A DNA stretch of 64,000 nt from positions 496,001-560,000 of the forward strand of contig BROI01000017.1 of the NCBI GenBank assembly GCA_027923505.1, read 5' to 3'. How positions within the stretch are numbered: position 1 is the stretch's first letter; every line of letters begins with the position of its first letter. This document shows positions 685 to 54,757 of the stretch, piece by piece. Both the position numbers and the translations under genes were made by a program. This DNA comes from Mayamaea pseudoterrestris. Its lineage: Eukaryota. The notes below the pieces were generated by a model. It made no database searches. It was given only the letters and a program-made list of their open reading frames with translations, and had not been told where the DNA came from.

Positions 685-3600
685 ACTGGTGACAAGTTGT
701 CACCAAAGACATTGCCATCCCCTGAGACACCAGCCAAGCTTACCATCTTGTAGCGCAGCCTGAAAAAGGATGTTGGCACCATTCTGGTGTAATTTGGCAC
801 CTACAGGGCCTGCTGTAGGGGCGTTTGAATGTCATGGCATCTGCGGGCTGAGACTGGTGACAAGTTGTCACCAAATATATTGCCATCCCCTGAGACACCA
901 GCCAAGCTTACCATCTTGTAGCGCAGCCTATATAATGATGTTGGCACCATTCTGGTGTGATTTGGGCACCTACCGGGCTTGCTGTAGGTGTGTCTGAAAG
1001 TCATGGCATCTGCAGGCAGAGACTGGTGACAAGTTGTAGCAAATACCATGCAGTCCCCTGAGACACCATCTGAAGGCTGGGACTGGTGACAAGTTGTCAG
1101 CAAATACCATGCAGTCCCCTGAGACAAAGCCAGGCATACCATCTTGTAGCGCATCCCATTTAATGATGTGGCACCATTCTGGTGTCATTTGGGTGTATCC
1201 ATGGCCTGCTGTAGGGGCATTTGAATGTCAAGGCATCTGCAGGCTGAGACTGGTGACAAGTTGTCACCAAATACATTGCCGTCCCCTGAGACAAATGCCA
1301 GGCATACCATCTTGTTGTGTAGCCTCAATTATGATGTTGGCACCATTCTGGTGTCATTTGGGTGTATACATGGCCTGCTGTAGGAGCATTTGAATGTCAA
1401 GGCATCTGCGGGCTGAGACTGGTGACAAGTTGTCACCAAATACATTGCAATCCCATGAGACACCCGCCAAGCTTACCATCTTGTAGCGCAGCTAGAAACT
1501 GATGTTGGCACCATTCTGGGGTAAGTTTGGCACCTACAGGGCCTGCTGTAGGGGCGTTTGAATGTCATGGCATCTGCAGGCTGAGACTGGTGACAAGTTG
1601 TCACCAAATACATTGCCATCCCCTGAGACACCAGCCAAGCTTACCATCTTGTAGCGCAGCCTATAAAATGATGTTGGCACCATTCTGGTGTAATTTGGGC
1701 ACCTACAGGGCCTGCTGTAGGGGCATTTGAATGTCATGGCATCTGCGGGCTGAGACTGGTGACAAGTTGTCACCAAATACATTGCCATCCCCTGAGACAC
1801 CAGCCAAGCTTACCATGATGTAGCACAGCCGGAAAAATGATGTTGGCACCATTGTGGTGTAATTTGGGCACCTACAGGGCCTGCTGTAGGGGCGTTTGAA
1901 TGTCATGGCATCTGTCGGCTTAGACTGGTGACAAGTTGTCACCAAATACATTGCCATCCCCTGAGACACCAGCCAAGCTTACCATGTTGTAGCGCAGCCT
2001 GAAAAATGATGTTGGCACCATTCTGGTGTAAATTGGGCACCTACAGGGCCTGCTGTAGGGGCGTTTGAATGTCATGGCATCTGCGGGCTGAGACTGGTGA
2101 GAAGTTGTCACCAAATACATTGCCATCCCCTGAGACACCAGCCAAGCTTACCATCTTGTAGCGCAGCCTAAAAAATGATGTTGGCACCATTCTGGTGTAA
2201 TTTGGGCATCTACAGGGCCTGCTGTAGGGGCGTATGAATGTCATGGCATCTGCGGGCTGAGACTGGTGACAAGTTGTCACCAAATACATTGCCATCCCCT
2301 GAGACACCAGCCAAGCTTACCATCTTGTAGCGCAGCCTGAATAATGATGTTGGCACCATTCTGGTGTAATTTGGGCACCTACAGGGCCTGCTGTAGGGGC
2401 GTTTGAATGTTGCAGCATCTGCGGGTTGAGGCTGGTGACAAGTTGTCACCAAATACATTGCCATCCCCTGAGCCACCAGCCAAGCTTACCCTCTTGTAGC
2501 GCAGCCTGAATAATGATGTTGGCACCATTCTGGTGTAAATTGGGCACCTACAGGGCCTGCTGTAGGGGCGTTTGAATGTCATGGCATCTGCGGGCTGAGA
2601 CTGGTGACAAGTTGTCACCAAATACATTGCCATCCCCTGAGACACCAGCCAAGCTTACCATCTTGTAGCGCAGCCTGAACAAGGATGTTGGCACCATTCT
2701 GGTGTAAATTGGGCACCTACAGGGCCTGCTTTAGGGGCGTTTGAATGTCATGGCATCTGCGGGCTGAGACTGGTGACAAGTTGTCACCAAATACATTGCC
2801 ATCCCCTGAGACACCAGCCAAGCTTACCATCTTGTAGCGCAGCCTGAATAATGATGTTGGCACCATTCTGGTGTAAATTGGGCACCTACAGGGCCTGCTG
2901 TAGGGGCGTTTGAATGTTGCGGCATCTGCGGGCTGAGACTGGTGACAAGTTGTCACCAAATACATTGCCATCCCCTGAGACACCAGCCAAGCTTACCATC
3001 TTGTAGCGCAGCCTGAATAATGATGTTGGCACCATTCTGGTGTAATTTGGGCACCTACAGGGCCTGCTGTAGGGGCGTTTGAATGTCATGGCATCTGCGG
3101 GCTGAGACTGGTGACAAGTTGTCACCAAATACATTGCCATCCCCTGAGACACCAGCCAAGCTTACCATCTTGTAGCGCAGCCTGAATAATGATGTTGGCA
3201 CCATTCTGGTGTAATTTGGGCACCTACAGGGCCTGCTGTAGGGGCGTTTGAATGTCATGGCATCTGCGGGCTGAGACTGGTGACAAGTTGTCACCAAATA
3301 CATTGCCATCCCCTGAGACACCAGCCAAGCTTACCATCTTGTAGCGCAGCCTGAATAATGATGTTGGCACCATTCTGGTGTAAATTGGGCACCTACAGGG
3401 CCTGCTGTAGGGGCGTTTGAATGTCATGGCATCTGCGGGCTGAGACTGGTGACAAGTTGTCACCAAATACATTGCCATCCCCTGAGACACCAGCCAAGCT
3501 TACCATCTTGTAGCGCAGCCTGAATAATGATGTTGGCACCATTCTGGTGTAAATTGGGCACCTACAGGGCCTGCTGTAGGGGCGTTTGAATGTCATGGCA

Positions 3601-6600
3601 TCTGTGGGCTGAGACTGGTGACAAGTTGTCACCAAATACATTGCCATCCCCTGAGACACCAGCCAAGCTTACCATCTTGTAGCGCAGCCTGAAAAATGAT
3701 GTTGGCACCATTCTGGTGTAAATTGGGCACCTACAGGGCCTGCTGTAGGGGCGTTTGAATGTCATGGCATCTGCGGGCTGAGACTGGTGACAAGTTGTCA
3801 CCAAATACATTGCCATCCCCTGAGACACCAGCCAAGCTTACCATCTTGTAGCGCAGCCTGAATAATGATGTTGGCACCATTCTGGTGTAAATTGGGCACC
3901 TACAGGGCCTGCTGTAGGGGCGTTTGAATGTCATGGCATCTGCGGGCTGAGACTGGTGACAAGTTGTCACCAAATACATTGCCATCCCCTGAGACACCAG
4001 CCAAGCTTACCATCTTGTAGCGCAGCCTATATAATGATGTTGGCACCATTCTGGTGTAATTTGGGCATCTACAGGGCCTGCTGTAGGTGTGTTTGAATGT
4101 CATGGCATCTGCGGGCTGAGACTGGTGACAAGTTGTCACCAAATACATTGCCATCCCCTGAGACACCTGCCAAGCTTACCATCTTGTAGCGCAGCCTGAA
4201 TAATGATGTTGGCACCATTCTGGTGTAATTTGGGCACCTACAGGGCCTGCTGTAGGTGTGTTTGAATGTCATGGCATCTGCGGGCTGAGACTGGTGACAA
4301 GTTGTCACCAAATACATTGCCATCCCCTGAGACACCAGCCAAGCTTACCATCTTGTAGCGCAGCCTGAATAATGATGTTGGCACCATTCTGGTGTAATTT
4401 GGGCACCTACAGGGCCTGCTGTAGGGGCGTTTGAATGTCATGGCATCTGCGGGCTGAGACTGGTGACAAGTTGTCACCAAATACATTGCCATCCCCTGAG
4501 ACACCAGCCAAGCTTACCATCTTGTAGCGCAGCCTGAATAATGATGTTGGCACCATTCTGGTGTACATTGGGCACCTACAGGGCCTGCTGTAGGGGCGTT
4601 TGAATGTCATGGCATCTGCGGGCTGAGACTGGTGACAAGTTGTCACCAAATACATTGCCATCCCCTGAGACACCAGCCAAGCTTACCATCTTGTAGCGCA
4701 GCCTGAATAATGATGTTGGCACCATTCTGGTGTAATTTGGGCACCTACAGGGCCTGCTGTAGGGGCGTTTGAATGTCATGGCATCTGCGGGCTGAGACTG
4801 GTGACAAGTTGTCACCAAATACATTGCCATCCCCTGAGACACCAGCCAAGCTTACCATCTTGTAGCGCAGCCTGAAAAATGATGTTGGCACCATTCTGGT
4901 GTAATTTGGGCACCTACAGGGCCTGCTGTAGGGGCGTTTGAATGTCATGGCATCTGCGGGCTGAAGACTGGTGACAAGTTGTCACCAAATACATTGCCAT
5001 CCCCTGAGACACCAGCCAAGCTTACCATCTTGTAGCGCAGCCTGAATAATGATGTTGGCACCATTCTGGTGTAAATTGGGCACCTACAGGGCCTGCTGTA
5101 GGGGCGTTTGAATGTCATGGCATCTGCGGGCTGAGACTGGTGACAAGTTGTCACCAAATACATTGCCATCCCCTGAGACACCAGCCAAGCTTACCATCTT
5201 GTAGCGCAGCCTGAATAATGATGTTGGCACCATTCTGGTGTAAATTGGGCACCTACAGGGCCTGCTGTAGGGGCGTTTGAATGTCATGGCATCTGCGGCT
5301 GAGACTGGTGACAAGTTGTCACCAAATACATTGCCATCCCCTGAGACACCAGCCAAGCTTACCATCTTGTAGCGCAGCCTGAAAAATGATGTTGGCACCA
5401 TTCTGGTGTAATTTGGGCACCTACAGGGCCTGCTGTAGGGGCGTTTGAATGTCATGGCATCTGCGGGCTGAGACTGGTGACAAGTTGTCACCAAATACAT
5501 TGCCATCCCCTGAGACACCAGCCAAGCTTACCATCTTGTAGCGCAGCCTGAATAATGATGTTGGCACCATTCTGGTGTAATTTGGGCACCTACAGGGCCT
5601 GCTGTAGGGGCGTTTGAATGTCATGGCATCTGCGGGCTGAGACTGGTGACAAGTTGTCACCAAATACATTGCCATCCCCTGAGACACCAGCCAAGCTTAC
5701 CATCTTGTAGCGCAGCCTGAATAATGATGTTGGCACCATTCTGGTGTAACTTGGGCACCTACAGGGCCTGCTGTAGGTGCGTTTGAATGTCATGGCATCT
5801 GCGGGCTGAGACTGGTGACAAGTTGTCACCAAATACATTGCCATCCCCTGAGACACCAGCCAAGCTTACCATCTTGTAGCGCAGCCTGAATAATGATGTT
5901 GGCACCATTCTGGTGTAATTTGGGCACCTACAGGGCCTGCTGTAGGGGCGTTTGAATGTCATGGCATCTGCGGGCTGAGACTGGTGACAAGTTGTCACCA
6001 AATACATTGCCATCCCCTGAGACACCAGCCAAGCTTACCATCTTGTAGCGCAGCCTGAATAATGATGTTGGCACCATTCTGGTGTAATTTGGGCACCTAC
6101 AGGGCCTGCTGTAGGGGCGTTTGAATGTCATGGCATCTGCGGGCTGAGACTGGTGACAAGTTGTCACCAAATACATTGCCATCCCCTGAGACACCAGCCA
6201 AGCTTACCATCTTGTAGCGCAGCCTGAATAATGATGTTGGCACCATTCTGGTGTAATTTGGGCACCTACAGGGCCTGCTGTAGGGGCGTTTGAATGTCAT
6301 GGCATCTGCGGGCTGAGACTGGTGACAAGTTGTCACCAAATACATTGCCATCCCCTGAGACACCAGCCAAGCTTACCATCTTGTAGCGCAGCCTGAATAA
6401 TGATGTTGGCACCATTCTGGTGTAATTTGGGCACCTACAGGGCCTGCTGTAGGGGCGTTTGAATGTCATGGCATCTGCGGGCTGAGACTGGTGACAAGTT
6501 GTCACCAAATACATTGCCATCCCCTGAGACACCAGCCAAGCTTACCATCTTGTAGCGCAGCCTGAATAATGATGTTGGCACCATTCTGGTGTAACTTGGG

Positions 6601-9600
6601 CACCTACAGGGCCTGCTGTAGGGGCGTTTGAATGTCATGGCATCTGCGGGCTGAGACTGGTGACAAGTTGTCACCAAATACATTGCCATCCCCTGAGACA
6701 CCAGCCAAGCTTACCATCTTGTAGCGCAGCCTGAATAATGATGTTGGCACCATTCTGGTGTAATTTGGGCACCTACAGGGCCTGCTGTAGGGGCGTTTGA
6801 ATGTCATGGCATCTGCGGGCTGAGACTGGTGACAAGTTGTCACCAAATACATTGCCATCCCCTGAGACACCAGCCAAGCTTACCATCTTGTAGCGCAGCC
6901 TGAATAATGATGTTGGCACCATTCTGGTGTAATTTGGGCACCTACAGGGCCTGCTGTAGGGGCGTTTGAATGTCATGGCATCTGCAGGCTGAGACTGGTG
7001 ACAAGTTGTCACCAAATACATTGCCATCCCCTGAGACACCAGCCAAGCTTACCATCTTGTAGCGCAGCCTGAATAATGATGTTGGCACCATTCTGGTGTA
7101 AATTGGGCACCTACAGGGCCTGCTGTAGGGGCGTTTGAATGTCATGGCATCTGCGGGCTGAGACTGGTGACAAGTTGTCACCAAATACATTGCCATCCCC
7201 TGAGACACCAGCCAAGCTTACCATGTTGTAGCGCAGCCTGAAAAATGATGTTGGCACCATTCTGGTGTAAATTGGGCACCTACAGGGCCTGCTGTAGGGG
7301 CGTTTGAATGTCATGGCATCTGCGGGCTGAGACTGGTGACAAGTTGTCACCAAATACATTGCCATCCCCTGAGACACCAGCCAAGCTTACCATCTTGTAG
7401 CGCAGCCTGAATAATGATGTTGGCACCATTCTGGTGTAAATTGGGCACCTACAGGGCCTGCTGTAGGGGCGTTTGAATGTCATGGCATCTGCGGGCTGAG
7501 ACTGGTGACAAGTTGTCACCAAATACATTGCCATCCCCTGAGACACCAGCCAAGCTTACCATCTTGTAGCGCAGCCTGAATAATGATGTTGGCACCATTC
7601 TGGTGTAATTTGGGCACCTACAGGGCCTGCTGTAGGGGCGTTTGAATGTCATGGCATCTGCGGGCTGAGACTGGTGACAAGTTGTCACCAAATACATTGC
7701 CATCCCCTGAGACACCAGCCAAGCTTACCATCTTGTAGCGCAGCCTGAATAATGATGTTGGCACCATTCTGGTGTAATTTGGGCACCTACAGGGCCTGCT
7801 GTAGGGGCGTTTGAATGTCATGGCATCTGCGGGCTGAGACTGGTGACAAGTTGTCACCAAATACATTGCCATCCCCTGAGACACCAGCCAAGCTTACCAT
7901 CTTGTAGCGCAGCCTGAATAATGATGTTGGCACCATTCTGGTGTAAATTGGGCACCTACAGGGCCTGCTGTAGGGGCGTTTGAATGTCATGGCATCTGCG
8001 GGCTGAGACTGGTGACAAGTTGTCACCAAATACATTGCCATCCCCTGAGACACCAGCCAAGCTTACCATCTTGTAGCGCAGCCTGAATAATGATGTTGGC
8101 ACCATTCTGGTGTAAATTGGGCACCTACAGGGCCTGCTGTAGGGGCGTTTGAATGTCATGGCATCTGCGGGCTGAGACTGGTGACAAGTTGTCACCAAAT
8201 ACATTGCCATCCCCTGAGACACCAGCCAAGCTTACCATGTTGTAGCGCAGTCTGAATAATGATGTTGGCACCATTCTGGTGTAATTTGGGCACCTACAGG
8301 GCCTGCTGTAGGGGCATTTGAATGTCATGGCATCTGCGGGCTGAGACTGGTGACAAGTTGTCACCAAATACATTGCCATCCCCTGAGACACCAGCCAAGC
8401 TTACCATCTTGTAGCGCAGCCTGAATAATGATGTTGGCACCATTCTGGTGTAAATTGGGCACCTACAGGGCCTGCTGTAGGGGCGTTTGAATGTCATGGC
8501 ATCTGCAGGCTGAGACTGGTGACAAGTTGTCACCAAATACATTGCCATCCCCTGAGACACCAGCCAAGCTTACCATCTTGTAGCGCAGCCTGAATAATGA
8601 TGTTGGCACCATTCTGGTGTAATTTGGGCACCTACAGGGCCTGCTGTAGGGGCGTTTGAATGTCATGGCATCTGCGGGCTGAGACTGGTGACAAGTTGTC
8701 ACCAAATACATTGCCATCCCCTGAGACACCAGCCAAGCTTACCATCTTGTAGCGCAGCCTGAATAATGATGTTGGCACCATTCTGGTGTAATTTGGGCAC
8801 CTACAGGGCCTGCTGTAGGGGCGTTTGAATGTCATGGCATCTGCGGGCTGAGACTGGTGACAAGTTGTCACCAAATACATTGCCATCCCCTGAGACACCA
8901 GCCAAGCTTACCATCTTGTAGCGCAGCCTGAATAATGATGTTGGCACCATTCTGGTGTAAATTGGGCACCTACAGGGCCTGCTGTAGGGGCATTCGAATG
9001 TTGCGGCATCTGCGGGCTGAGACTGGTGACAAGTTGTCACCAAATACATTGCCATCACTGTCTGAGAACCAGCCAAGCTTACCATCTTGTAGCGCAGCCT
9101 GAATAATGATGTTGGCACCATTCTGGTGTAATTTGGGCACCTACAGGGCCTGCTGTAGGGGCGTTTGAATGTCATGGCATCTGCGGGCTGAGACTGGTGA
9201 CAAGTTGTCACCAAATACATTGCCATCCCCTGAGACACCAGCCAAGCTTACCATCTTGTAGCGCAGCCTGAATAATGATGTTGGCACCATTCTGGTGTAA
9301 TTTGGGCACCTACAGGGCCTGCTGTAGGGGCGTTTGAATGTCATGGCATCTGCAGGCTGAGACTGGTGACAAGTTGTCACCAAATACATTGCCATCCCCT
9401 GAGACACCAGCCAAGCTTACCATCTTGTAGCGCAGCCTGAATAATGATGTTGGCACCATTCTGGTGTAATTTGGGCACCTACAGGGCCTGCTGTAGGGGC
9501 ATTTGAATGTCATGGCATCTGCGGGCTGAGACTGGTGACAAGTTGTCACCAAATACATTGCCATCCCCTGAGACACCAGCCAAGCTTACCATCTTGTAGC

Positions 9601-12600
9601 GCAGCCTGAATAATGATGTTGGCACCATTTTTGGTGTAATTTGGGCACCTACAGGGCCTGCTGTAGGGGCGTTTGAGAGTCATGGCATCTGCGGGCTGAG
9701 ACTGGTGACAAGTTGTCACCAAATACATTGCCATCCCCTGAGACACCAGCCAAGCTTACCATCTTGTAGCGCAGCCTGAATAATGATGTTGGCACCATTT
9801 GGTGTAATTTGGGCACCTACAGGGCCTGCTGGGGTTTGTTTGAATGTCATGGCATCTGCAGGCTGAGACTGGTGACAAGTTGTCACCAAATACATTGCCA
9901 TCCCTTGAGACACAAGCCAAGCTTACCATCCTGTAGCGCAGCCTATATAATGATGTTGGCACCGTTTTAGTGTAAATTGGGCACCTACAGGGCCTGTTGT
10001 AGGGGTGTTTGAATGTCATGGCATCTGCAGGCTGAGACTGGTGACAAGTTGTCACCAAATACATTGCTGTCCCCTGAGACACCTGCCAAGCTTACCATCT
10101 TGTAGCGCAGCCTGAAAAAGGATGTTGGCACCGGATTTGGTGCCGGGCCGTTTGAATGTCATGGCATCTGCGGGCGGAGACTGGTGACAAGTTGTCACCA
10201 AATACATTGCCATCCCCTGAGACACCAGCCAAGCTTACCATCTTGTAGCGCAGCCTGAATAATGATGTTGGCACCATTCTGGCTGTAGATGGCCGGCGTT
10301 TGGTGGCATCTGCGGGCTGAGACTGGTGACAAGTTGTCAAACCTGAGACATCAGCCAAGCTTACCATCTTGTAGCGCAGCCTGAATAATGATGTTGGCAC
10401 CATTCTGGTGTAATTTGGGCACCTACAGGGCCTGCTGTAGGGGCGTTTGAATGTCATGGCATCTGCGGGCTGAGACTGGTGACAAGTTGTCACCAAATAC
10501 ATTGCCATCCCCTGAGACACCAGCCAAGCTTACCATCTTGTAGCGCAGCCTGAATAATGATGTTGGCACCATTCTGGTGTAATTTGGGCACCTACAGGGC
10601 CTGCTGTAGGTGTGTTTGAATGTAATGGCATCTGCGGGCTGAGACTGGTGACAAGTTGTCACCAAATACATTGCCATCCCCTGAGACACCAGCCAAGCTT
10701 ACCATCTTGTAGCGCAGCCTGAATAATGATGTTGGCACCATTCTGGTGTAATTTGGGCACCTACAGGGCCTGCTGTAGGGGGTGTTTGAATGTCATGGCA
10801 TCTGCGGGCTGAGACTGGTGACAAGTTGTCACCAAATACATTGCCATCCCCTGAGACACCAGCCAAGCTTACCATCTTGTAGCGCAGCCTGAATAATGAT
10901 GTTGGCACCATTCTGGTGTAATTTGGGCACCTACAGGGCCTGCTGTAGGGGCATTCGAATGTTGCGGCATCTGCGGGCTGAGACTGGTGACAAGTTGTCA
11001 CCAAATACATTGCCATCCCCTGAGACATCAGCCAAGCTTACCATGTTGTAGCGCAGTCTGAATAATGATGTTGGCACCATTCTGGTGTAATTTGGGCACC
11101 TACAGGGCCTGCTGTAGGGGCATTTGCTGTCATGGCATCTGCGGCTGAGACTGGTGACAAGTTGTCACCAAATACATTGCCATCCCCTGAGACACCAGCC
11201 AAGCTTACCATCTTGTAGCGCAGCCTGAATAATGATGTTGGCACCATTCTGGTGTAATTTGGGCACCTACAGGGCCTGCTGTAGGGGCATTCGAATGTTG
11301 CGGCATCTGCGGGCTGAGACTGGTGACAAGTTGTCACCAAATATGCCACCCGGCTATCATGGCATCTTTTAGGCTGGAGACTGGTGACGAAGCGCTTACC
11401 ATCTTGTAGCGCAGCCTGAATAATGATGTTGGCACCATTCTGGTGTAATTTGGGCACCTACAGGGCCTGCTGTAGGGGCGTTTGAATGTCATGGCATCTG
11501 CGGGCTGAGACTGGTGACAAGTTGTCACCAAATACATTGCCATCCCCTGAGACACCAGCCAAGCTTACCATCTTGTAGCGCAGCCTATAAAATGATGTTG
11601 GCACCATTCTGGTGTAATTTGGGCACCTACAGGGCCTGCTGTAGGGGCGTTTGAATGTCATGGCATCTGCAGGCTGAGACTGGTGACAAGTTGTCACCAA
11701 ATACATTGCCATCCCCTGAGACACCAGCCAAGCTTACCATCTTGAAGCGCAGCCTGAATAATGATGTTGGCACCATTCTGGTGTAATTTGGGCACCTACA
11801 GGGCCTGCTGTAGGGGCGTTTGAATGTCATGGCATCTGCGGGCTGAGACTGGTGACAAGTTGTCACCAAATACATTGCCATCCCCTGAGACACCAGCCAA
11901 GCTTACCATCTTGTAGCACAGCCTGAAAAAGGATGTTGGCATCCTTCTGGTGTAATTTGGGCACCTACAGGGCCTGCTTTAGGGGCGTTTGAATGTCATG
12001 GCATCTGCGGGCTGAAACTGGTGACAAGTTGTCACCAAATACATTGCCATCCCCTGAGACACCAGCCAAGCTTACCATCTTGTAGCGCAGCCTGAAAAAT
12101 GATGTTGGCACCATTCTGGTGTAAATTGGGCACCTACAGGGCCTGATGTAGGCTGTTTGAATGTCATGGCATCTGCAGGCTGAGACTGGTGACAAGTTGT
12201 CACCAAATACATTGCCATCCCCTGAGACACCAGCCAAGCTTACCATCTTGTAGTGCAGCCTAAAAAATGATGTTGGCACCATTCTGGTGTAATTTGGGCA
12301 CCTACAGGGCCTGCTGTAGGGGCGTTTGAATGTCATGGCATCTGCGGGCTGAGACTGGTGACAAGTTGTCACCAAATACATTGCCATCCCCTGAGACACC
12401 AGCCAAGCTTACCATCTTGTAGCGCAGCCTGAATAATGATGTTGGCACCATTCTGGTGTAAATTGGGCACCTACAGGGCCTGCTGTAGGGGCGTTTGAAT
12501 GTTGCGGCATCTGCGGGCTGAGACTGGTGACAAGTTGTCACCAAATACATTGCCATCCCCTGAGACACCAGCCAAGCTTACCATCTTGTAGCGCAGCCTA

Positions 12601-14366
12601 AAAAATGATGTTGGCACCATTCTGGTGTAATTTGGGCACCTACAGGGCCTGCTGTAGGGGCGTTTGAATGTCATGGCATCTTTGGGCTGAGACTGGTGAC
12701 AAGTTGTCACCAAATACATTGCCATCCCCTGAGACACCAGCCAAGCTTACCATCTTGTAGCGCAGCCTGAATAATGATGTTGGCACAGGGCCTGCTGTAG
12801 GGGCGTTTGAATGTCATGGCATCTGCAGGCTGAGACTGGTGACAAGTTGTCACCAAATACATTGCCATCCCCTGAGACACCAGCCAAGCTTACCATCTTG
12901 TAGCGCAGCCTGCAAAATGATGTTGGCACCATTCTGGTGTAATTTGGGCACCTACAGGGCCTGCTGTAGGGGCGTTTGAATGTCATGGCATCTGCAGGCT
13001 GAGACTGGTGACAAGTTGTCACCAAATACATTGCCATCCCCTGAGACACCAGCCAAGCTTACCATCTTGTAGCGCAGCCTGAAAAAGGATGTTGGCACCA
13101 TTCTGGTGTAATTTGGGCACCTACAGGGCCTGCTGTAGGGGCGATTGAATGTCATGGCATCTGCGGCTGAGACTGGTGACAAGTTGTCACCAAATACATT
13201 GCCATCCCCTGAGACACCAGCCAAGCTTACCATGTTGTAGCGCAGTCTGAATAATGATGTTGGCACCATTCTGGTGTAATTTGGGCACCTACAGGGCCTG
13301 CTGTAGGGGCATTTGAATGTCATGGCATCTGCAGGCTGAGACTGGTGACAAGTTGTCACCAAATACATTGCCATCCCCTGAGACACCAGCCAAGCTTACC
13401 ATCTTGAAGCGCAGCCTGAAAAATGATGTTGGCACCATTCTGGTGTAATTTGGGCACCTACGGGCCTGCTGTAGGGGCGTTTGAATGTCGCGGCATCTGC
13501 GGGCTGAGACTGGTGACAAGTTGTCACCAAATACATTGCCACCCCCTGAGACACCCGCCAATTTTACCATCTTGTAGCGCAGCCTAAAAAATGATGTTGG
13601 CACCATTCTGGTGTAAATCTGGGCACCTACAGGGCCTGCTGTAGGGGCGTTTGAATGTCATGGCGTCTGTGGGCTGAGACTGGTGACAAGTTGTCACCAA
13701 ATACATTGCCATCCCCTGAGACACCAGCCAAGCTTACCATCTTGTAGCGCAGCCTGAATAATGATGTTGGCACCATTCTGGTGTACATTGGGCACCTACA
13801 GGGCTTGTTGTAGATATGTTTGAATGTCATGGCATCTGTGGGCTGAGACTGGTGACAAGTTGTCACCAAATACATTGCCATCCCCTGAGACACTAGCCAA
13901 GCTTACCATCTTGTAGCGCAGCCTATATAATGATGTTGGCACCATTCTGGTGTAATTTGGGCATCTACAGGGCCTGCTGTAGGTGTGTTTGAATGTAATG
14001 GCATCTGCGGGCTGAGACTGGTGACAAGTTGTCACCAAATACATTGCCATCCCCTGAGACACCAGCCAAGCTTAACATCTTGTAGCGCAGCCTGAAAAAT
14101 GATGTTGGCACCATTCTGGTGTAATTTGGGCATACACATGGCTCAAGGTATGGGCATTTGAAAAGCATGGCAGCTGCTGGCTGAGATTGGTGAGAAGTTC
14201 TCACCAGTCACATTGCAGTCTACTAGGACACTAGCCAGGCATACCATCTTGTAGCGCAGACTGAATAATGATGTTGACACCATTCTGGTGTGATTTGGGT
14301 GTCAACATGGCGTGTTATCTGGGCAATTGAATGTCAAGGCATCTGTGGGCTGAGACTGGTGAGAAG
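685..14366. repeat. Tandem satellite array, 169-bp monomer, about 81 copies
   Basis: Consensus CTGGTGACAAGTTGTCACCAAATACATTGCCATCCCCTGAGACACCAGCCAAGCTTACCATCTTGTAGCGCAGCCTGAATAATGATGTTGGCACCATTCTGGTGTAATTTGGGCACCTACAGGGCCTGCTGTAGGGGCGTTTGAATGTCATGGCATCTGCGGGCTGAGA, repeated head-to-tail. The ORF track repeats with a 169-bp period. About 51% GC by hand count. One HindIII site per monomer. Edge monomers are diverged. Confidence 0.99.
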
Positions 14367-14548
14367 CAGTCTACTCACCCGCCAGATTGTTGGATCTGCT
14401 GAGTTTCACCGTGCCATGCATGGAGATGGATTCAAGGTGCTACTGACCCAATTGTTTCTTTTAAATGACATAAAATATCAATTGAAAGGTTTTGACTGTC
14501 TTGGTTGGCCATTCTAATGATCCCTGTGCCGAAAATGGGGCACTGCTG

Positions 14549-15017
14549 GCACAGTCAACCTTTAAGACTGATAAGTTAGAAATCAATCAGTGACGTCATC
14601 AAGCGCCGGACGGACGTCACGAGAAAACTTCAAATCAAGTTCGCGTCGCCCTTTTTCACCAACGCGCAAAGCAGCGACAGTGCAACAAAGCTTCTACATC
14701 AATCTACAGACAACCAACTAACGATTTATAAAGAAAGATGTTGGCGCAGACTGGTCCCGTCGCTTGGGTATAGATTCTTTGGGGATGTTGAGGTGCGGAA
14801 CGATTTTCGCTCAAGCGGGCAGGTGCGACATCCATCGGTACTCGACTGCGTCTTAGGATTGCTCGCGCACCTCCTCTCCGATTTTCACTCGTTGGTAACC
14901 GTTGGAAAGCCCGTCGAGTCGTTAATGAAATGTGATGCATAACTAAAAAACGTCAAAAAGGTCATTATGACGTCACTGAAGGCATTCTAACTTATCAGTC
15001 TTTTTTGTTGAATGTGC
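14549..15017. mobile_element. 469-bp segment bounded by 51-bp imperfect inverted repeats (MITE-like or foldback element)
   Basis: 14549-14599 matches the reverse complement of 14967-15017 at 42/51 positions, including perfect blocks AAGACTGATAAGTTAGAA and TCAGTGACGTCAT. No convincing internal ORF and no clear target-site duplication. Confidence 0.45.
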
Positions 15018-15309
15018 TCAGTCTCTTGGCATAGTGATGGGTTCTGCACACAATTTGTGAACTCTATTGGTCCAATACATTCATGAACAACTTCAATCAT
15101 GTTAGTTTTTCGGAAGTGTCAGGCCACTCTGGCAGTCTGGGTGCCAACTGGGCTGTACATGGCGCAGGCAAATTCCGCGAAGCGTCGCATTTCCTACGCA
15201 TGCCAAACGGCAGACCAAACGAGGTACAGATCACAAACGGTAAAAATATCGCTAATACTCAACATTTCGTAGTTTTGTTGTGCTCTCTAAAAGACAGTGA
15301 ATAAAGAGC

Positions 15310-15400
15310 ATGCGTCGACGGCAAAGCAATATCGGAGCAAACACACGCATCAATCATTGATGCAGCAATTGTTCGTCATTCTTGCCTTGTCGCGACGCAT
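15310..15400 (-). promoter_or_regulatory. SECIS element in the 3' UTR of the SelT-like gene
   Basis: Minus-strand hairpin: ATGCGTCG/CGACGCAT and CGACAAGGCAA/TTGCTTTGCCG form helix I. The core is ATGAC (15379-15375) with CGAT (15334-15331), a tandem GA/AG quartet. Helix II is GAACAATTGC/GTGTTTGCTC. It lies directly downstream of a UGA-containing SelT ORF. Confidence 0.8.
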
Positions 15401-15425
15401 CGCGCCTTACGTCATCTTCATTCGC

Positions 15426-16110
15426 TCATGTACGCTTCATCAAGCCCATGGCCGACATGCCGTTAATCATGTCCTCCATGGTTGGAAACTGACCAGTCTC
15501 CAACTTGCTCCATACCTTCTTCTCGTCAAGATAGATTTCGAAAGCTCCGGTTATCAACCATTTCGACAATACTTGCGGTAGAATCAAGAATAAAGCAATA
15601 CCAATCTGCAGCGAATTGTTTCGAATCGACTCGTACCATCTTGGAATGCCTTGGTAGCCAAGCATTCGCAAGACTCTCTCTCCTCCAAAGAACATGTAAA
15701 GCAGCGCCATTAGTTGCAACATGGATAAGAGATTGCTAATAAGCTCGGCCACTGGCGGTGGAGGATAGTTTTGACCTTCAATGTGTCCGCGCAGCTCTGG
15801 GTATGAGTTTTCGAGGAACTGAGCCATGGAGACAAAGTTCCTCTTCATGCCTCAGCCCATGCAATAGAATATTTTTACCGAATGCTGTACAAATTTGTTG
15901 CTTTCAGAGTCTGCTGCATTAACGAGCGCATGCTATGGAAACGAAACGAAAGTATATACATTTGTGAGCAGGAAGGCCGAATGACGCTCCATCGCTCAAA
16001 CAGCTCCAGAGACTCACCGTCTCAAATTCCTGAGACATTGCTATTGCCGAAAGCAGCAACAGCAGGAGGGCGGACAACGACCGTGTCGAAAGAACCAGCA
16101 TGGTGGTCAT
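15426..16110 (-). CDS. SELT: Selenoprotein T-like (Rdx family) with Sec in a CxxU motif; 2 exons (16110-16018, 15884-15426)
   Basis: A signal-peptide exon splices (GT at 16017, AG at 15886-15885, phase 0) to HSVKIFYC-M-G-TGA-GMKRNF...YPELRGHIEGQNYPPPP...TGAFEI..VWSKLETGQFP, the SelT signature. In-frame TGA at 15854-15852. SECIS downstream. Confidence 0.92.
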
Positions 16111-16418
16111 GGCAGCAACTGAGGTTCCGTTTTGTGTCGATGAGCGGCTGGATCGGACTGATTTTTAAATCGCATCGGCAATGAATACTGACGTATGCGA
16201 ACGCCATGGTACATGAATGTCACACTCACCGCCAATGTACACTTGACACCACAGTAAAAGTGGCGACGCTGACACACAACGGTTTTCAAAAATCGCACTG
16301 GCGGTTGTTGGCGTGTGGCCAAGCCAGCCGACGACCACACTACTTGCTGCTCCATGGCCCCAACATTCGTCGCCCTTCACTCATTCAGCCAAAAGCATTC
16401 AACAGCTTGTCTATAGCC

Positions 16419-17736
16419 ATGTCCATGTCATTGGGGTCCAAGCTGCAGCTCGAGCCAGGTAGCTGGATGGAAGCAATCTACGACGTCTACATTGGCATTG
16501 TCGTTGGAGGCCGGCATTCAGCCTTTTTGGTTTCGCGGGGCGCGTACAACCTGTTCGGGCACCCGATTCTCGCCCTCTTTGGCATTCAACGCGCCATTGG
16601 TCAAGAGGAAGCTGCAACGAATACGGAGGGTCTCAAAGTGGTAGCTGTTGGCTACGGACGGACAGGAACGGTACGTGAACGGACGCGCTGGTTCCGCATG
16701 CTGCTTTTTTGCATTGAAACCGTCGAATCTACCATGGAAGCGTATGTTTTTGTTATGTCATGACTGAGTTATCGTGTGTCATCGCTTGAAATGAATAGTT
16801 GGGTGTAAGGGCGAGCGTCTGCCGTCGTCTTTGCATTTACAAGCGACTCATCACTTGTCGTCTCACTTTCTTCCACAGTATTCGCTGACATTGGCGCTAG
16901 AAGAGCTTGGTTTTCCAACGTTGCACACCCAACATTTATACGAAAATGAAGAAATTATTAACATGTGGACCAATGACGTCTTTCTGCCTTCCATCAAAAC
17001 CGGCGAGATTGATCTTGGACGACCAAATCTACAAATCATTGCCAAGAAATTTCAAGCAACAGCCGATTTGCCCATGGCCCTTTACTTTGAACAAGTTATG
17101 GAGGAATTTCCCGATTGCAAGTTTGTCCTGACGGAGCGAGAAAACTCGGAGACTTGGTTTCGGTCCTGGAGTGTGCTCACGCAGAGCATCACCACGCCGA
17201 CGCAGACTGGAGGCATGTTCTTCTCCAAGGTCAAGCAGTATTCGCACTACTTGCGATGGCTTTATTCTGTCGTCAACCAAGATGAAGAGTTTCTTACATC
17301 GTCCTTTCCATTTCCGGAGCAAAACAAGGAGATGGCTATTATGAGCTACGAAGCTCACAATGCTCGAGTTCGGCAGGTCATTCCAAGCGATCGCTTGCTC
17401 GAGTACAATGTCAAGCAAGGCTGGGAGCCGCTTTGCAATTTCCTCGAGATTGAAAGTTGTCCTGACACGCCATTCCCCAAGACCAATTCGGCGCGATCAG
17501 TCCAAGTCCAGTCCATTTCGGCGCAGTTGGTTCCACTCGTCGTTTCTCTCTTTGTCGTATTTACCCTATTTGCTAAGGGCTTTCAAATGGCGACTGGAAA
17601 ACCAGTCGTCGGCTGGGCGCGATGCAAGACGTTGGAACTGCTGCGAAACATGAATCGCGCGCTGAATGGAGAAAAGGTCATTTGGACCAATGGCAGCCCG
17701 CCGCCAACTCCAAGACGAAAGCGTCGCATCAGCTAA
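16419..17736 (+). CDS. Sulfotransferase-like P-loop protein (sulfotransferase_4-type family); intron 16671-16878
   Basis: Spliced motif LKVVAVGYGRTGT|YSLTLALEELGF, also DLP, FPDCKFVLTER..W..S, RLLEYNVKQGWEPLCNFL and PFPKTN. Canonical GT-AG intron. Confidence 0.8.
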
Positions 17737-17981
17737 ATAGCATGATTGCGAAGTGTGCTCGTCATTTCGATGAGTCTATTTGTGATATCTGTCAATTGTG
17801 GAGGTAATCCTCATGTCGTCTTTGTTTCGTTCGATTAAGCATGCTGTATATCGGATCGAGAAAACAGTAAATTAAAGCTTATTTGTGCTATCACCATCTG
17901 CCACTACACGATGATTACACATAGTCTTCATATCAATCCTATGTTAAACAATGACGCCTATCTTTATAAGGTATTCTGCCT

Positions 17982-18719
17982 TTAATTGTTTTTGATAATG
18001 CCGACCTCGGCAGGTCGTAGTACTCGCTTATTTAAAGAGAAGCCCTTCTTCATGACTTGTCCAACGACGCCATCGTTCTTGCTCGGATCAGGATACTGCA
18101 TGAGTGCTTCATGCTGGTTCGGATCGAACTTATCTCCAACATTGCCATATTTGACGAGTCCGTTTGACTCGAAGGCCTTATTCAACCCCATTTCTGTCAA
18201 ATGTATACCTTCATAAAGTGATCCCAGCACTGGATTCGCTTCCTTATCATCCAGCGCCTCCTTTGGCACACTCTCCAAAGCCCGCGTCAAATTATCCGAA
18301 ACATCCAAGAGTGATTTGGCGAATGATTTAATCGCGTACTGGCGCGCATCCTGTACATCCCGTTGAGCAATTCGACGCGTATTGTCTTGCTCGGCCAGTG
18401 AGCGAAGAAGCTGATCCTTGAGTTCCTTGACTTGAGCTTCGAGCTCCTCCTCCTTTGAGACAATTTCGGGAGGTACCGTCGTAGATTCCGGCGGAGGTTC
18501 TTGGGAGTCGTTGTCTGTTGCTGCAGCTGCTGCTTCATCCTTCTTGTCCGTGTTGTAGTAGTCGCTCAGAAATCGCATCGATGTTTGTGGGGCAAACGCT
18601 GCTCGAATTGACAGCGCATTTTGCGAAATTTCAGGAATTCGACTGCGAACGATCTGTCGCGAAACAGTCTTTGGCAGTAGCGAGGACGATAGTGCGAAAA
18701 CAGTGCGAGTGGACGCCAT
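17982..18719 (-). CDS. grpE: Mitochondrial GrpE nucleotide exchange factor
   Basis: LRSLAEQDNTRR, FAKSLLDVSDNL, FDPNQHEAL, GFSLNKRVLRPAEV. Arg/Ser-rich mitochondrial presequence starting at MASTR. Confidence 0.95.
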   Translation of the reverse strand: MASTRTVFALSSSLLPKTVSRQIVRSRIPEISQNALSIRAAFAPQTSMRFLSDYYNTDKKDEAAAAATDNDSQEPPPESTTVPPEIVSKEEELEAQVKELKDQLLRSLAEQDNTRRIAQRDVQDARQYAIKSFAKSLLDVSDNLTRALESVPKEALDDKEANPVLGSLYEGIHLTEMGLNKAFESNGLVKYGNVGDKFDPNQHEALMQYPDPSKNDGVVGQVMKKGFSLNKRVLRPAEVGIIKNN

Positions 18720-25774: not shown

Positions 25775-28700
25775 ATGTTGCAATCTCGACTTGCCTCGCT
25801 GGCTCGTCGCCGCGTCGTAGCAGCGCCTGCTACGCTTGGATGGCGATTCGCTTCCGTTCTCAACGACAAACCCCTTTGTACCCGATTCCTCTCCAATGAC
25901 AGCAAGTCAAACAGTCATCAGCCGCAGCATCGACAAGAACATGTCGTTATCCCTGGCATGCGGAGCGACTTGAGCTCCCTGGGTGGTGATGCCATCATGC
26001 CGAACCGTCAGCATCCGGTCGCTCCATGGCAGGCGGAACACAATATTGACGTGCAGCGTGTCACGCGCAAGGCTATAGTGCAAGTCATAGTATTTCTGAT
26101 TGAATTGGTTGAGATGCGTAATAAATTCACTCATATTTTACGAATCTTCATCCTGTTTACACAGATACGAACTCGCCCAGCAGTCGACTCGTTCGCTTGA
26201 AGAGGTTGTTCCATGGTTTCTCGACAATATGCCATCGGCTTACTTTCGTCAAGTACACGAGCAGTATCGCAATCAGCACCTAAAGTCAATTACAGCTGTC
26301 AAGGAAGCAGGTATGGACATGTATTTGAATCTCAAGACGCAACTACCGGATGGGCGGCAGGTTTTGACGTTTATTCGACCCGGCACGGCGGCTGGAACCT
26401 TGCTCCGCATGGTGGAGGAGCTGCCGTGGAAGCATAACGATGCCGACTATTTGCCGTTGACCCGGATTTTAGTATTTTCAGCCAAGGATGAGTCCATGAG
26501 CTTGAACATGTTTGTCTATGGCGTCAAGAATATGGCGCTGCCTGGACACTTTGATGAGCTGGAAGCGGGTAGAAACATTCTCGACTATGCCGCCGCTGTT
26601 CAGCGCGGAGACGTTTCGGAGCTGGAGCCAAACCCCTTGTATGAGCCAGAACCAATGAAGGAGTTTTTGCAGCGTTGCACGGAGAATTATATTCGGGCGC
26701 TCGCGAATGAACCGCGTCGCTTCTTGACGCAGCGCGCCTTGATTGAGCAAGTCTCGGGCACGGAGGGAACGCGCGTTTACATTGAACCAGCCGAGTCGGA
26801 AGATGGCGGAGAAGGAAGTTATTGGGTGGACGTTGCCGTGGCCAACTCGCTTCCGCAGGTGGCGTTGGAAAATGTGTGTCGGTTGCTGTTTCATCACCAT
26901 TTTGACGTGACTCGCAGTCGATTGGATATTGTCAATGACGGCGACAATGGAACTGTCACGGTAAGTGAAGTGAGGTGGTGATTGCGTGTCAAAATGTCAA
27001 ATGCTTACAATTTTGCTTGCAGATTCTTCGCATGCTTGCCGCACCAGTTTCTGGCAAGGAAATTACAGTTGATACGTTTGAGATGCTACAGCGGGAATTG
27101 AAGAGAGCTAAATGGCTCGACCCATTGACAATGGAGCTGTTCTTTGACAAGTACAAACATCTAGGGGTTGCTCGGGCGGAAATTATTACTGCATTTGGCT
27201 CGCTGCTGCACCCAATCATGGCCAAGGAAAATGCAATGGCGTTCTCCAAGGCGAACATCCTAGCGACAATATGCAGTGAGCGCTTCATGCCATACTCGGA
27301 AGCCGTTGCTGATCTTTTCGTCGACCGTTTTAATCCCAACAATCCACTATCAGATGCGGACTTTAAGTTGCGCTGTAATGAGATTATCCAGCTGATCAAA
27401 AGCGACGTTGAAGACACTGTTGCAACGGAACTCTTTCTTAAGATGGTGGCCATTGTGACTCACACGCTCAAGACGAATCTTTACATGCCTGACCGCTATG
27501 CGCTTGGACTTCGTTTGGACCCAAGGGTCATGGAAACTCCAGCCGACAAGGGACGAGAATTACCATTTGGTATCGTTTTTGTTCACGGACGGCGTTTTAA
27601 CGGTTACCATGTTCGATTCCGCGACATTGCTCGCGGAGGACTTCGGCTGGTGACTCCTCCAACACCAGAGCAGTACTCGCTGGAGTCGGCACGGCAATAC
27701 GACGAGTGCTATGGACTTGCATTCGCCCAGCAGCTCAAGAACAAGGATATTCCTGAAGGTGGTTCGAAAGCCGTCTGCCTCGTCGACCCCACTGGTATCG
27801 GCTCTAGTGCGAAGCAGTTTGTCATGCGAAAAAGTGTGAAAGCATTCACCGACACCATACTAGATTTGATCGTGTTGACTGATGAAACGAAGGAGAACAT
27901 TATCGACTTGTACGGCAAGAAGGAAGTGTTGTACTTGGGACCAGATGAGCAGATAATTCCAGATGACATTAACTGGATCATTAAGCGCGCTGGCTATCGA
28001 GGATACGACACTCCAAACGCTTTTATGAGCAGTAAGCCACGCGCCGGTATTAATCACAAGGAATTTGGAGTGACTAGCGAAGGCGTCAATGTTTATTTAG
28101 ACGTGGCGCTTCGTCAGGTTCTTGGCATTGATCCAAAGAAGGATACTTTCACAATCAAAATGACCGGAGGACCAGATGGAGACGTTGCTGGCAATGAGCT
28201 GAAGATTCTTTTTCGGGAGTACAATGAGACTGCCAAAGTTGTTGGAATTGCGGATGCATCGGGATGTTGTGAAGACCCGGCGGGGTTGGACCAAGAAGAG
28301 CTTCTCCGACTTGTGACGGACGGTTTGGCGATTGGTTATTTCAACCCAGCAAAGCTGGGTATCGATGGAGTTTTGCACAAGGCTGACAATCCCGAAGGCA
28401 TCAAAGCCCGCAACAGTATGCACAATCGCTTAAAGGCTGACGCATTTATGCCGTGTGGAGGACGTCCCAACACGATCGACATCACAAACTATCGTAATTT
28501 CATCGCCGAAGAGGGAGTTCCATCAAGTCCACTTATTGTTGAAGGCGCCAACCTATTTATAACCAAGGAAGCACGCAAGGCACTTTTCGAGGAAGCTGGT
28601 GTAGCCATTATCAAGGACAGCTCTGCTAATAAAGGCGGAGTAATAACAAGTTCCTACGAAATTTGTGGTTAGTGTACTGTGTCCCTCGTCGCATTGTAAA

Positions 28701-53464: not shown

Positions 53465-54757
53465 TTAGCTAATCAAAGCAGGTTCCAAATGCCCTTCGTC
53501 TGCCGCTCGACGCAACTTATCCAGTGCCGTGTGCACTAGACGTCGCGTGTATTCAGCAGAGACTTGCATTTTCTTCCCAACTTCAACAAAAGACATGGCT
53601 TCGCCTTGCTTTCCTTTGATGGGAATCTCTGGTGCGCGTGTCTGTTGTGGCGGTTTGCCAAAGAGCGCTTCCTCGGCTTCGGCCAGGTAGTCAATGGGCT
53701 CTGCAAGCTTGTGGCTTTCGCTGATCAATCCGTAGCGCCAGCTCAAGGCTTCCATCTCCTTTGGTCTTAGGAACCGCGACAAGGTCTTGGTCAAGTGTTC
53801 GACGTCGTCCGTGGGTGCCCGACTTGCTGCAGCATGCATGGCAGTATCCGTCTGCATATCGCGTCCCTTTTGCATCCACGAGTCGAATGACATGATTCCT
53901 TGACTGCGTCGTCGTCTCACCTTGATGGCTTCTGCCAACTGCCGCTCCGTCAAACCAGCTTCCTCGGCCAATGCCTTGGCAGCTTGCGCCTCTCTCCACC
54001 GATCGGGCGACGATACGGACCATAAAATAGATTCCCCATTAATTTCAATACCCAGAGTCTTGGCTGCCCGCGACATTTTACGCACTGCGGCAGAAACATG
54101 CTCCGGCACTCGCACAACGTCGTCGCGCTCGGCAATGCATCTCAAGACAGCCGCTCGCACCCAATACATGGCGTAAGTGCTAAAGCGACCGCCAATCTCC
54201 ATGTTCCACTTGTCAATCGCTCGCGACAAGCCAATGCATCCTTCCTGCACCAAATCGTCTCGACTCAAGTTCAGTCCTTGTCGACGAGTCTTCATAATGT
54301 CATTGACAGCGTAGTGCACTAGACCAAGATTATTTGTCACTAATTGATCGCGGGCAGCTTGACCAAGGGTTATGGCGTCTTGGTAGGCATAAATGTCGTC
54401 GCCGTACCCGCAGGCTCGTGCCAAGACAAGTTGACTATTTGTTCGACTGGGTGTCTTCAAGGCAACTTCTTGCTGTATTCGTTTAATGGTACGTAATTGA
54501 ACGGCTTGTTTCAGTAGTTCTTGCTGTTCTTCATGTGATAATCGTTCCGTTGGTCGAGTCAAAGAAGGTATTCTGCTGCTGCGGCTAGCTGGCTTGTTAT
54601 AAGCTGATTGAGTTGCGCCGGCATGGAGTGCCGAAGGATCGGATCGACTCCATAGTCGCGACGGAGCAAGAGGCACTGTGAATCCAAAACATGGCGTCGA
54701 AGATATGTAGCATACAGAGACAATGCTCGTCACGGCAATGCATAAGGGACGTTTCAT
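53465..54757 (-). CDS. Nucleus-encoded plastid RNA polymerase sigma-70 factor
   Basis: Bipartite presequence (..PCFG-F). Region 2 LVTNNLGLV, DLVQEGCIGL, RFSTYAMYWVR and VRVP. C-terminal region 4 HTH. Confidence 0.9.
   Translation of the reverse strand: MKRPLCIAVTSIVSVCYISSTPCFGFTVPLAPSRLWSRSDPSALHAGATQSAYNKPASRSSRIPSLTRPTERLSHEEQQELLKQAVQLRTIKRIQQEVALKTPSRTNSQLVLARACGYGDDIYAYQDAITLGQAARDQLVTNNLGLVHYAVNDIMKTRRQGLNLSRDDLVQEGCIGLSRAIDKWNMEIGGRFSTYAMYWVRAAVLRCIAERDDVVRVPEHVSAAVRKMSRAAKTLGIEINGESILWSVSSPDRWREAQAAKALAEEAGLTERQLAEAIKVRRRRSQGIMSFDSWMQKGRDMQTDTAMHAAASRAPTDDVEHLTKTLSRFLRPKEMEALSWRYGLISESHKLAEPIDYLAEAEEALFGKPPQQTRAPEIPIKGKQGEAMSFVEVGKKMQVSAEYTRRLVHTALDKLRRAADEGHLEPALIS

Follow-up and report, generated by a model that had tools for sequence, protein, structure and literature searches.

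Introduction

What kind of chromosomal locus is formed by a long array of nucleosome-sized tandem repeats in the compact genome of a diatom? This question is raised by 64,000 nucleotides of Mayamaea pseudoterrestris (assembly GCA_027923505.1, contig BROI01000017.1, positions 496,001 to 560,000 of the forward strand; hereafter the window, whose own numbering is used throughout), which carry near their left end an array of 169-bp monomers. An initial annotation, made from the sequence alone, had described this array and proposed that it might be a satellite-type centromere or another specialised chromatin locus. The analysis reported here points to a new satellite family of high copy number, which extends far beyond this locus and is probably non-kinetochore heterochromatin.

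Diatom centromeres have so far been described in quite different terms. In Phaeodactylum tricornutum, chromatin immunoprecipitation (ChIP) of CENP-A and episome assays identified centromeres that are low in guanine and cytosine (GC) and without repeats, and low-GC DNA of at least about 500 bp, even of foreign origin, was found to maintain episomes (10.1101/096016). The initial annotation had described these centromeres as short, low-GC, and non-repetitive. A similar pattern, with one low-GC region per scaffold, is given for Thalassiosira in the same source, and the putative centromeres of Fistulifera solaris are described as having 36-42% GC and no highly repeated elements (10.1101/2021.11.10.468027).

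The published M. pseudoterrestris assembly comprises 30.6 Mb in 41 contigs, based on Nanopore reads with an N50 of 8.6 kb, and is accompanied by a k-mer genome size of 27.2 Mb and a repeat content of 19%, mostly Ty1/Copia (PMC9724779). In Table S3 of that report, satellites are listed with 0 elements and 0 bp and unclassified repeats with 6,633 elements and 2.26 Mb, and the terms satellite, telomer-, and centromer- have 0 occurrences in its main text (PMC9724779). No satellite family of a diatom was found to be reported in the literature searched, which did not include subscription-journal papers and bioRxiv supplements; as far as could be seen, the 169-bp family appears to be undescribed. Among the works retrieved, diatom centromeres are the subject of the Phaeodactylum and Fistulifera preprints only.

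Results

A single-orientation array of 169-bp monomers

By using Tandem Repeats Finder (TRF), the array was delimited to positions 685-14366 of the forward strand, corresponding to 13,682 bp or 80.96 monomer lengths of 169 bp. Blocks of period 169 jointly cover this interval, the main ones with 91-97% matches, and the largest (1067-10132) contains 53.7 copies with 97% matches. A 169-nt consensus derived from the regularly spaced monomers was compared with the window by BLAST, which yielded 86 pieces, all on the forward strand and all within 685-14353; 76 of the 86 were full-length (at least 165 nt), and no match could be found elsewhere in the 64 kb. In addition, a 17-nt anchor was detected 77 times on the forward strand and 0 times on the reverse strand, with a spacing of exactly 169 nt in 55 of 76 intervals. 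A long head-to-tail array with monomers of fixed length on a single strand is the arrangement of satellite DNA. Several shortened or rearranged monomers interrupt the regular spacing (Table 1).

The description of a head-to-tail array of ~13.7 kb and ~81 monomers was therefore confirmed by TRF, BLAST, and anchor spacing. Other elements of the initial annotation were also borne out: its GC value of 51% compares with 51.5% for the consensus (46-50% in the flanks), unique sequence lies on both sides (the left side being limited to 685 bp inside the window), telomere repeats are absent from the window, and the surroundings are gene-dense from ~15.4 kb onwards. By contrast, its statement that the monomers are near-identical holds for the core, where pairwise identity averages 98.8%, and fails at the edges, where values go down to 81-89%.

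A homogenised core between diverged edges

The core monomers are 98-100% identical to the consensus and the older edge monomers 81-94%, with a drop to 85-93% on the left, and the mean pairwise identity of all 76 full monomers is 95.1%. Among these 76, 52 distinct sequences were found, and 14 monomers equal the consensus exactly. The left edge includes a 49-nt monomer fragment at 1021-1068 as well as two monomers (at 1081 and 1248) of a variant subfamily, in which GTGTATACATGG replaces GCACCTACAGGG. Monomers are more alike inside the array than at its edges, which is the pattern of concerted evolution.

No higher-order repeat was observed, the identity between monomers being flat across lags 1-8. 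A period-338 row in the TRF output was considered as a candidate of this kind and rejected, the excess at even lags being at most 0.5 point and located in 10400-12800. Variation is unevenly spread along the monomer. The share of the minor allele does not exceed 0.04 at monomer positions 1-32 and 0.05 at positions 86-107, and reaches 0.11-0.33 at positions 79-82, 110, 138-141, 151-153, and 163.

A perfect palindrome in the conserved part of the monomer

A perfect 9+9 palindrome, TGGTGACAA-G-TTGTCACCA (19 nt), occupies monomer positions 4-22 and is present in 77 exact copies. It falls in the least variable part of the monomer, and when the consensus was shuffled 2000 times with its dinucleotides preserved, 30 shuffles gave an arm of at least 9 nt. 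In the final full monomer (14185-14353), the most diverged of these at 81% identity to the consensus, the site reads TGGTGAGAA-G-TTCTCACCA, and two changes (C10>G and G16>C) keep the pairing intact. Such a paired change suggests that the dyad may be under selection, a possible sign from a single case rather than proof. Two weaker dyads were also noted: one spans positions 94-106 with arms of 5 nt, and the other, which the edge subfamily has lost, spans positions 118-137 with arms of 7 nt.

The partial unit at the end of the array (14356-14385) has the form GGTGAG...CTCACC with a longer loop. As a separate candidate, a structured RNA or DNA formed by folding of the whole monomer was considered and rejected, with no excess of folding over shuffled sequences.

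A monomer without coding or RNA signals

No open reading frame (ORF) of at least 150 aa exists in the array, where a frame read from stop to stop extends to 148 aa at most. The consensus has stops in each of its frames, the longest being 91 aa, and 169 is not a multiple of 3. This 91-aa frame has no homologue among ~5.8 billion proteins and no Pfam family, and the possibility of a protein-coding monomer was rejected on that basis. Searches of Rfam gave 0 matches at E up to 1 for 901 bases of the array and 0 matches at the gathering score for the whole window, and 0 tRNAs were found. With stops in its frames and no protein, Pfam, Rfam, or tRNA match, the monomer has the non-coding character of a satellite.

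High abundance beyond the assembled locus

Public DNA runs matching positions 11000-18000 (half array, half flank) were examined as contigs, which identified eight runs from two studies, none of them recorded as RNA. Four of them (X1, X2, X6, and X7) were compared over 13678-18000, comprising four monomers and 3.6 kb of flank. Contigs of X1 and X2 span the whole unique flank and differ from the window by 0.1-2.3%, so that these two runs represent the same or a very close taxon. In X1, 58,938 of 555,133 contigs (10.6%) fall on the monomers, and the corresponding figure for X2 is 11,797 of 182,933 (6.4%). The summed word depth per 145-bp monomer bin ranges from 652,845 to 8,408,308 in X1, compared with a flank depth of 76-111 under one contig and ~160 under two; in X2 it ranges from 63,336 to 868,745, compared with 23-30 under one contig and ~38 under two. 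Taken at face value, monomer depth exceeds flank depth ~4,000-50,000 times in X1 and 1,700-23,000 times in X2, which would put the satellite at roughly 0.3-9 Mb in each haploid genome, as against the 81 copies assembled at the locus; these figures give no more than an order of magnitude, 10^3-10^5 times the depth of the flank, summed contig depth not being a copy number. Despite this caveat, the 81-copy array is exceeded by two to three orders of magnitude, and the family has a high copy number beyond one locus.

The contigs are also informative on arrangement. Their joints go back 169 or skip ~169 or 338, which confirms the tandem order independently of the assembly; one example is an X1 contig with a step back of 169 and 76 letters on its shorter side. 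A 30-nt variant of the edge subfamily (window 1355-1384) is the consensus of the loose ends of 17 X1 and five X2 contigs, and several contig junctions pass from monomers into non-satellite sequence; such varied loose ends and joints imply that other array contexts exist. It follows that the family is dispersed or very incompletely assembled, with most of its copies lying elsewhere or collapsed at this locus, which fits the short reads used for the assembly (N50 8.6 kb). Restriction of the monomer to this locus, which the initial annotation had regarded as fatal to its proposal, is not what was seen, monomers making up 6-11% of the contig records in X1 and X2. Its suspicion that the array is collapsed in the assembly is plausible from the depth in these two runs, and under-representation of the family may be added to it.

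A different situation was found in X6 and X7, which belong to the same study as X1 and derive from the coded organisms C and D, X1 and X2 being coded A and B. Only 578 of 812,177 contigs in X6 and 510 of 459,145 in X7 fall on the monomers, with low summed depth. The unique flank is sparsely covered in X6, with depth in 11 of 30 bins and two 151-nt contigs identical to the window at a depth of ~2; in X7, depth was present in five of 30 bins, with no cover beyond the array. These two runs were not used as proof of a family common to several species, native copies and sample carry-over being indistinguishable in them. One X6 contig with its end at window position 14142 passes from the monomer into CTAGTTAGGGTTAGGGTTAG..., a telomere-like sequence of the TTAGGG type; it has low depth and its origin is uncertain.

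Raised depth at 14403-14692 was considered as a sign of a repeated array boundary and rejected, single places showing 182-672 compared with bin means of 2,000-2,400; these means are probably inflated because satellite contigs overhang. Beyond these runs, two conserved monomer patterns had 0 exact matches in JGI metagenome contigs and one such pattern had 0 exact matches in prokaryote genomes and viral contigs, searches that register exact matches only and miss diverged relatives.

Neighbouring sequence and genes

The features of the array and its immediate surroundings are listed in Table 1. The genes that flank the array are eukaryotic and almost intron-free, including those for XPG, GrpE, PPR, SWEET, P450, SHMT, and a sigma-70-type factor. 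Where relatives of the GrpE protein are named, they are diatoms, and the SHMT ORF is 100% identical to an NCBI protein of M. pseudoterrestris. The nearest one on the right, of the Rdx family, has one or more probable upstream exons reaching to ~16100. A miniature inverted-repeat transposable element (MITE)-like element lies between this gene and the array. Its X1 depth at single places is ~670, compared with ~160 in the flank, and it probably represents a low-copy repeat family; no target-site duplication is evident by eye, and as a neighbour of the array it has no sequence in common with the monomer. The left and right flanks of the array show no similarity to each other, either direct or inverted, and no transposon protein domain was detected among the 24 large ORFs scanned in the window or in the flank ORFs.

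Table 1. Coordinates of the satellite array, its parts, and neighbouring features in the window.
Feature	Position	Strand	Details
Whole satellite array, ~81 monomer lengths, one orientation	685..14366	+	Period 169; 86 BLAST pieces
Left diverged edge	685..1753	+	Monomers 85-98% identical to consensus
Homogenised core, 36 monomers	2937..9020	+	Mean pairwise identity 98.8% (pairwise comparison)
Example palindrome copy	2940..2958	.	19 nt, TGGTGACAA-G-TTGTCACCA
Cluster of shortened or rearranged monomers	10036..10342	+	Spacings 143, 142, 153
Rearranged monomer	11318..11394	+	With ~50 nt of degenerate monomer-like sequence
143-bp monomer	12691..12834	+	Internal deletion
Right diverged edge	13508..14366	+	Last five monomers 94, 95, 96, 89, 81% identical to consensus
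MITE-like element, 469 bp	14549..15017	.	51-nt terminal inverted repeats, 82% complementary; 183 bp right of array
Nearest right-hand gene exon, Rdx (SelT/SelW-like) family	15429..15848	-	PF10262, E 6.7e-09; 1.06 kb from array end

Further along the window, a nuclear gene with sigma-70 regions 2 and 4 (53465-54757, reverse strand) presumably encodes a plastid-targeted RNA polymerase sigma factor, and a fragment of a bacterial-type NAD-glutamate dehydrogenase (26975-28672) and a type III pantothenate kinase (56388-57365) were also recognised. In the flank, X1 and X2 contigs have a common set of differences from the window at 16135-16771 and 16875-17705 (12-19 per 639-831 nt), and a 702-nt X2 contig at 15267-15968 shows one difference. 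This mosaic fits the heterozygosity of 2.97% reported for the sequenced strain.

Discussion

A satellite family that is probably heterochromatic

The anatomy of the array, its non-coding nature, and the abundance of the family are direct observations, and they support the part of the initial annotation that spoke of a satellite or specialised chromatin locus: the repeat is tandem, non-coding, of nucleosome length, and not confined to this locus. Together they make it probable, if well short of certain, that the array belongs to a new lineage-restricted satellite family of the nuclear genome with high copy number, homogenised by exchange, heterochromatic, with a palindrome that may bind protein or form a cruciform, and non-kinetochore rather than part of a CENH3 core. 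By analogy with other eukaryotes, from which the views given here on homogenisation, chromatin, and the function of the palindrome are drawn, unequal exchange and gene conversion among the monomers would make the array grow and keep it homogeneous, and the array would be packaged as constitutive heterochromatin with about one nucleosome per monomer. The 9+9 palindrome would either be bound by a dimeric protein or form a cruciform, and its conservation would be due to selection or to homogenisation. Blocks of the family may be interstitial, subtelomeric, or pericentromeric, and would be largely collapsed or dropped by the long-read assembly.

Several points weigh against this interpretation. 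Heterochromatin and one nucleosome per monomer are suggestions that rest on other eukaryotes. The compensatory change in the palindrome is one case only, the low variation of the palindrome could be explained by homogenisation alone, and the whole monomer folds no better than shuffled sequences (z = -0.91; 41 of 200 shuffles do equally well). The copy number is only approximate, and 30,206 of the 58,938 X1 contigs on the monomers fit two places of the stretch, short contigs also overlapping one another. Finally, the 64 kb contain no low-GC centromere candidate of the Phaeodactylum type, the lowest GC of any 500-bp stretch being 41%.

Centromere, transposon, or artefact

A competing explanation is that the 169-bp family is the CENH3-binding centromere repeat and that the array, possibly collapsed, is the satellite-type regional centromere of its chromosome. 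Several features would suit this role: the monomer has nucleosome length, the array has a homogenised core and diverged edges, and each monomer contains a conserved short dyad, a kind of element reported as enriched in centromeric satellites. The family is very abundant in the flank-containing runs X1 and X2, and in the majority of characterised plants and animals the tandem repeat of highest abundance is that of the centromere (PMC4053949). Long arrays would collapse with assembly reads of N50 8.6 kb (PMC9724779), and no 500-bp stretch below 41% GC offers itself as an alternative in the 64 kb. For a centromere of the Phaeodactylum type, at least 500 bp of low-GC DNA without repeats was looked for, defined by clustered 100-bp windows whose GC is 32% or less. 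The array, repetitive and with 51.5% GC, does not have this form, and the whole window contains 10 clusters of such sliding windows, each spanning 100-165 bp. Against the centromere explanation, however, the GC content of the monomer lies above that of its flanks, whereas known diatom centromeres are low-GC and repeat-free; if a low-GC requirement is general in diatoms, a repeat with 51.5% GC is unlikely to be a CENH3 substrate. At 13.7 kb, the array is short as assembled, with a gene exon 1.06 kb from its end, and the X6 contig that joins the monomer to TTAGGG-type repeats weakly hints at a location of some arrays close to chromosome ends. Moreover, the window represents ~9% of a contig of 724,790 bp, and a low-GC centromere may sit elsewhere on it. 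Present evidence thus leans away from a centromere role. That this array is the centromere of its chromosome seems unlikely, and slightly more doubtful still is the wider claim that a GC-neutral 169-bp satellite is the CENH3-bound centromere repeat, which would be the first of the satellite type in diatoms and, in the literature searched, in any stramenopile.

The array might instead have arisen when part of a transposable element was expanded in tandem, or might travel with such an element, in which case its abundance would come from transposon spread and local amplification. The MITE-like element lies 183 bp from the right end of the array, with an X1 depth several-fold over that of the flank, and repeats are reported to make up 19% of the genome, chiefly Ty1/Copia, with unclassified repeats at 2.26 Mb (PMC9724779); in addition, satellites often derive from tandem repeats borne by retrotransposons (PMC7004042). 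At this locus, however, the monomer was not found within a longer mobile unit. The consensus has no match outside the array in the window, the flanks have no common similarity and so do not bracket the array with terminal repeats, neither a transposase nor a reverse-transcriptase domain occurs in the 24 large window ORFs or the flank ORFs, and the MITE-like element and the monomer have no sequence in common. A transposon origin is accordingly regarded as improbable. Even less credit is due to the idea of an assembly artefact (a false expansion or a mis-join of noisy long reads) or of an array of RNA or peptide genes, which is largely refuted and has very little chance of being correct. Polished Nanopore-only contigs could make monomers look overly uniform (PMC9724779), and 14 of the 76 full monomers are identical. 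Nevertheless, independent short-read contigs from two studies contain tandem monomers whose joints step back by 169 or jump over multiples of ~169, and a gene array is contradicted by the lack of any Rfam, tRNA, Pfam, or protein homologue, by a monomer length that is not a multiple of 3, and by stops in every frame of the consensus.

Comparison with known repeats

The human alpha satellite has a monomer of ~171 bp and the centromeric satellite of Arabidopsis one of ~178 bp. The Mayamaea repeat resembles such plant and animal centromeric satellites in its near-nucleosome monomer, long head-to-tail arrangement, homogenised core and diverged edges, high abundance, and short dyad. It differs from them in having 51.5% GC instead of being AT-rich, in its lack of a higher-order repeat, and in an assembled array of only 13.7 kb that adjoins genes; the likeness is one of architecture, and similarity of sequence is not expected.

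The centromeres of P. tricornutum and Fistulifera also come from raphid pennates with compact genomes and are single non-genic loci between genes, as is the array. They are described as ~0.5-3 kb long, low-GC, and repeat-free, in contrast to 13.7 kb of repeats with 51.5% GC in Mayamaea. Among stramenopiles, PpSat1 and PpSat2 of the oomycete Phytophthora parasitica are likewise abundant satellites, for which roles at centromeres and telomeres are discussed and which were found only after the assembly had been improved (PMC7290008). They belong to another lineage and are presumably unrelated in sequence, the likeness resting on their description. A further parallel is provided by the euchromatic tandem-repeat families of ~170 bp in Tribolium castaneum, which form satellite-like arrays between genes in chromosome arms (PMC4675708); unlike Mayamaea, this is an insect system.

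Implications

A compact freshwater diatom kept in culture collections and proposed as a model carries a nucleosome-length satellite, maybe in megabases, where zero satellites are listed in the paper on its genome. The nuclear DNA is therefore probably understated by both the assembly and the estimate of genome size, and analyses based on repeat masking would miss a major component. If the family were nevertheless the centromere repeat, several megabases of centromeric DNA would be missing from a genome reported as 30.6 Mb, and a switch in centromere type would have taken place within the raphid pennates, departing from the low-GC, sequence-independent kind found in Phaeodactylum. The current view of diatom centromeres is of short, low-GC loci free of repeats, and the design of episomes builds on it (10.1101/096016, 10.1101/2021.11.10.468027); the array provides a directly testable case for the generality of the low-GC diatom centromere.

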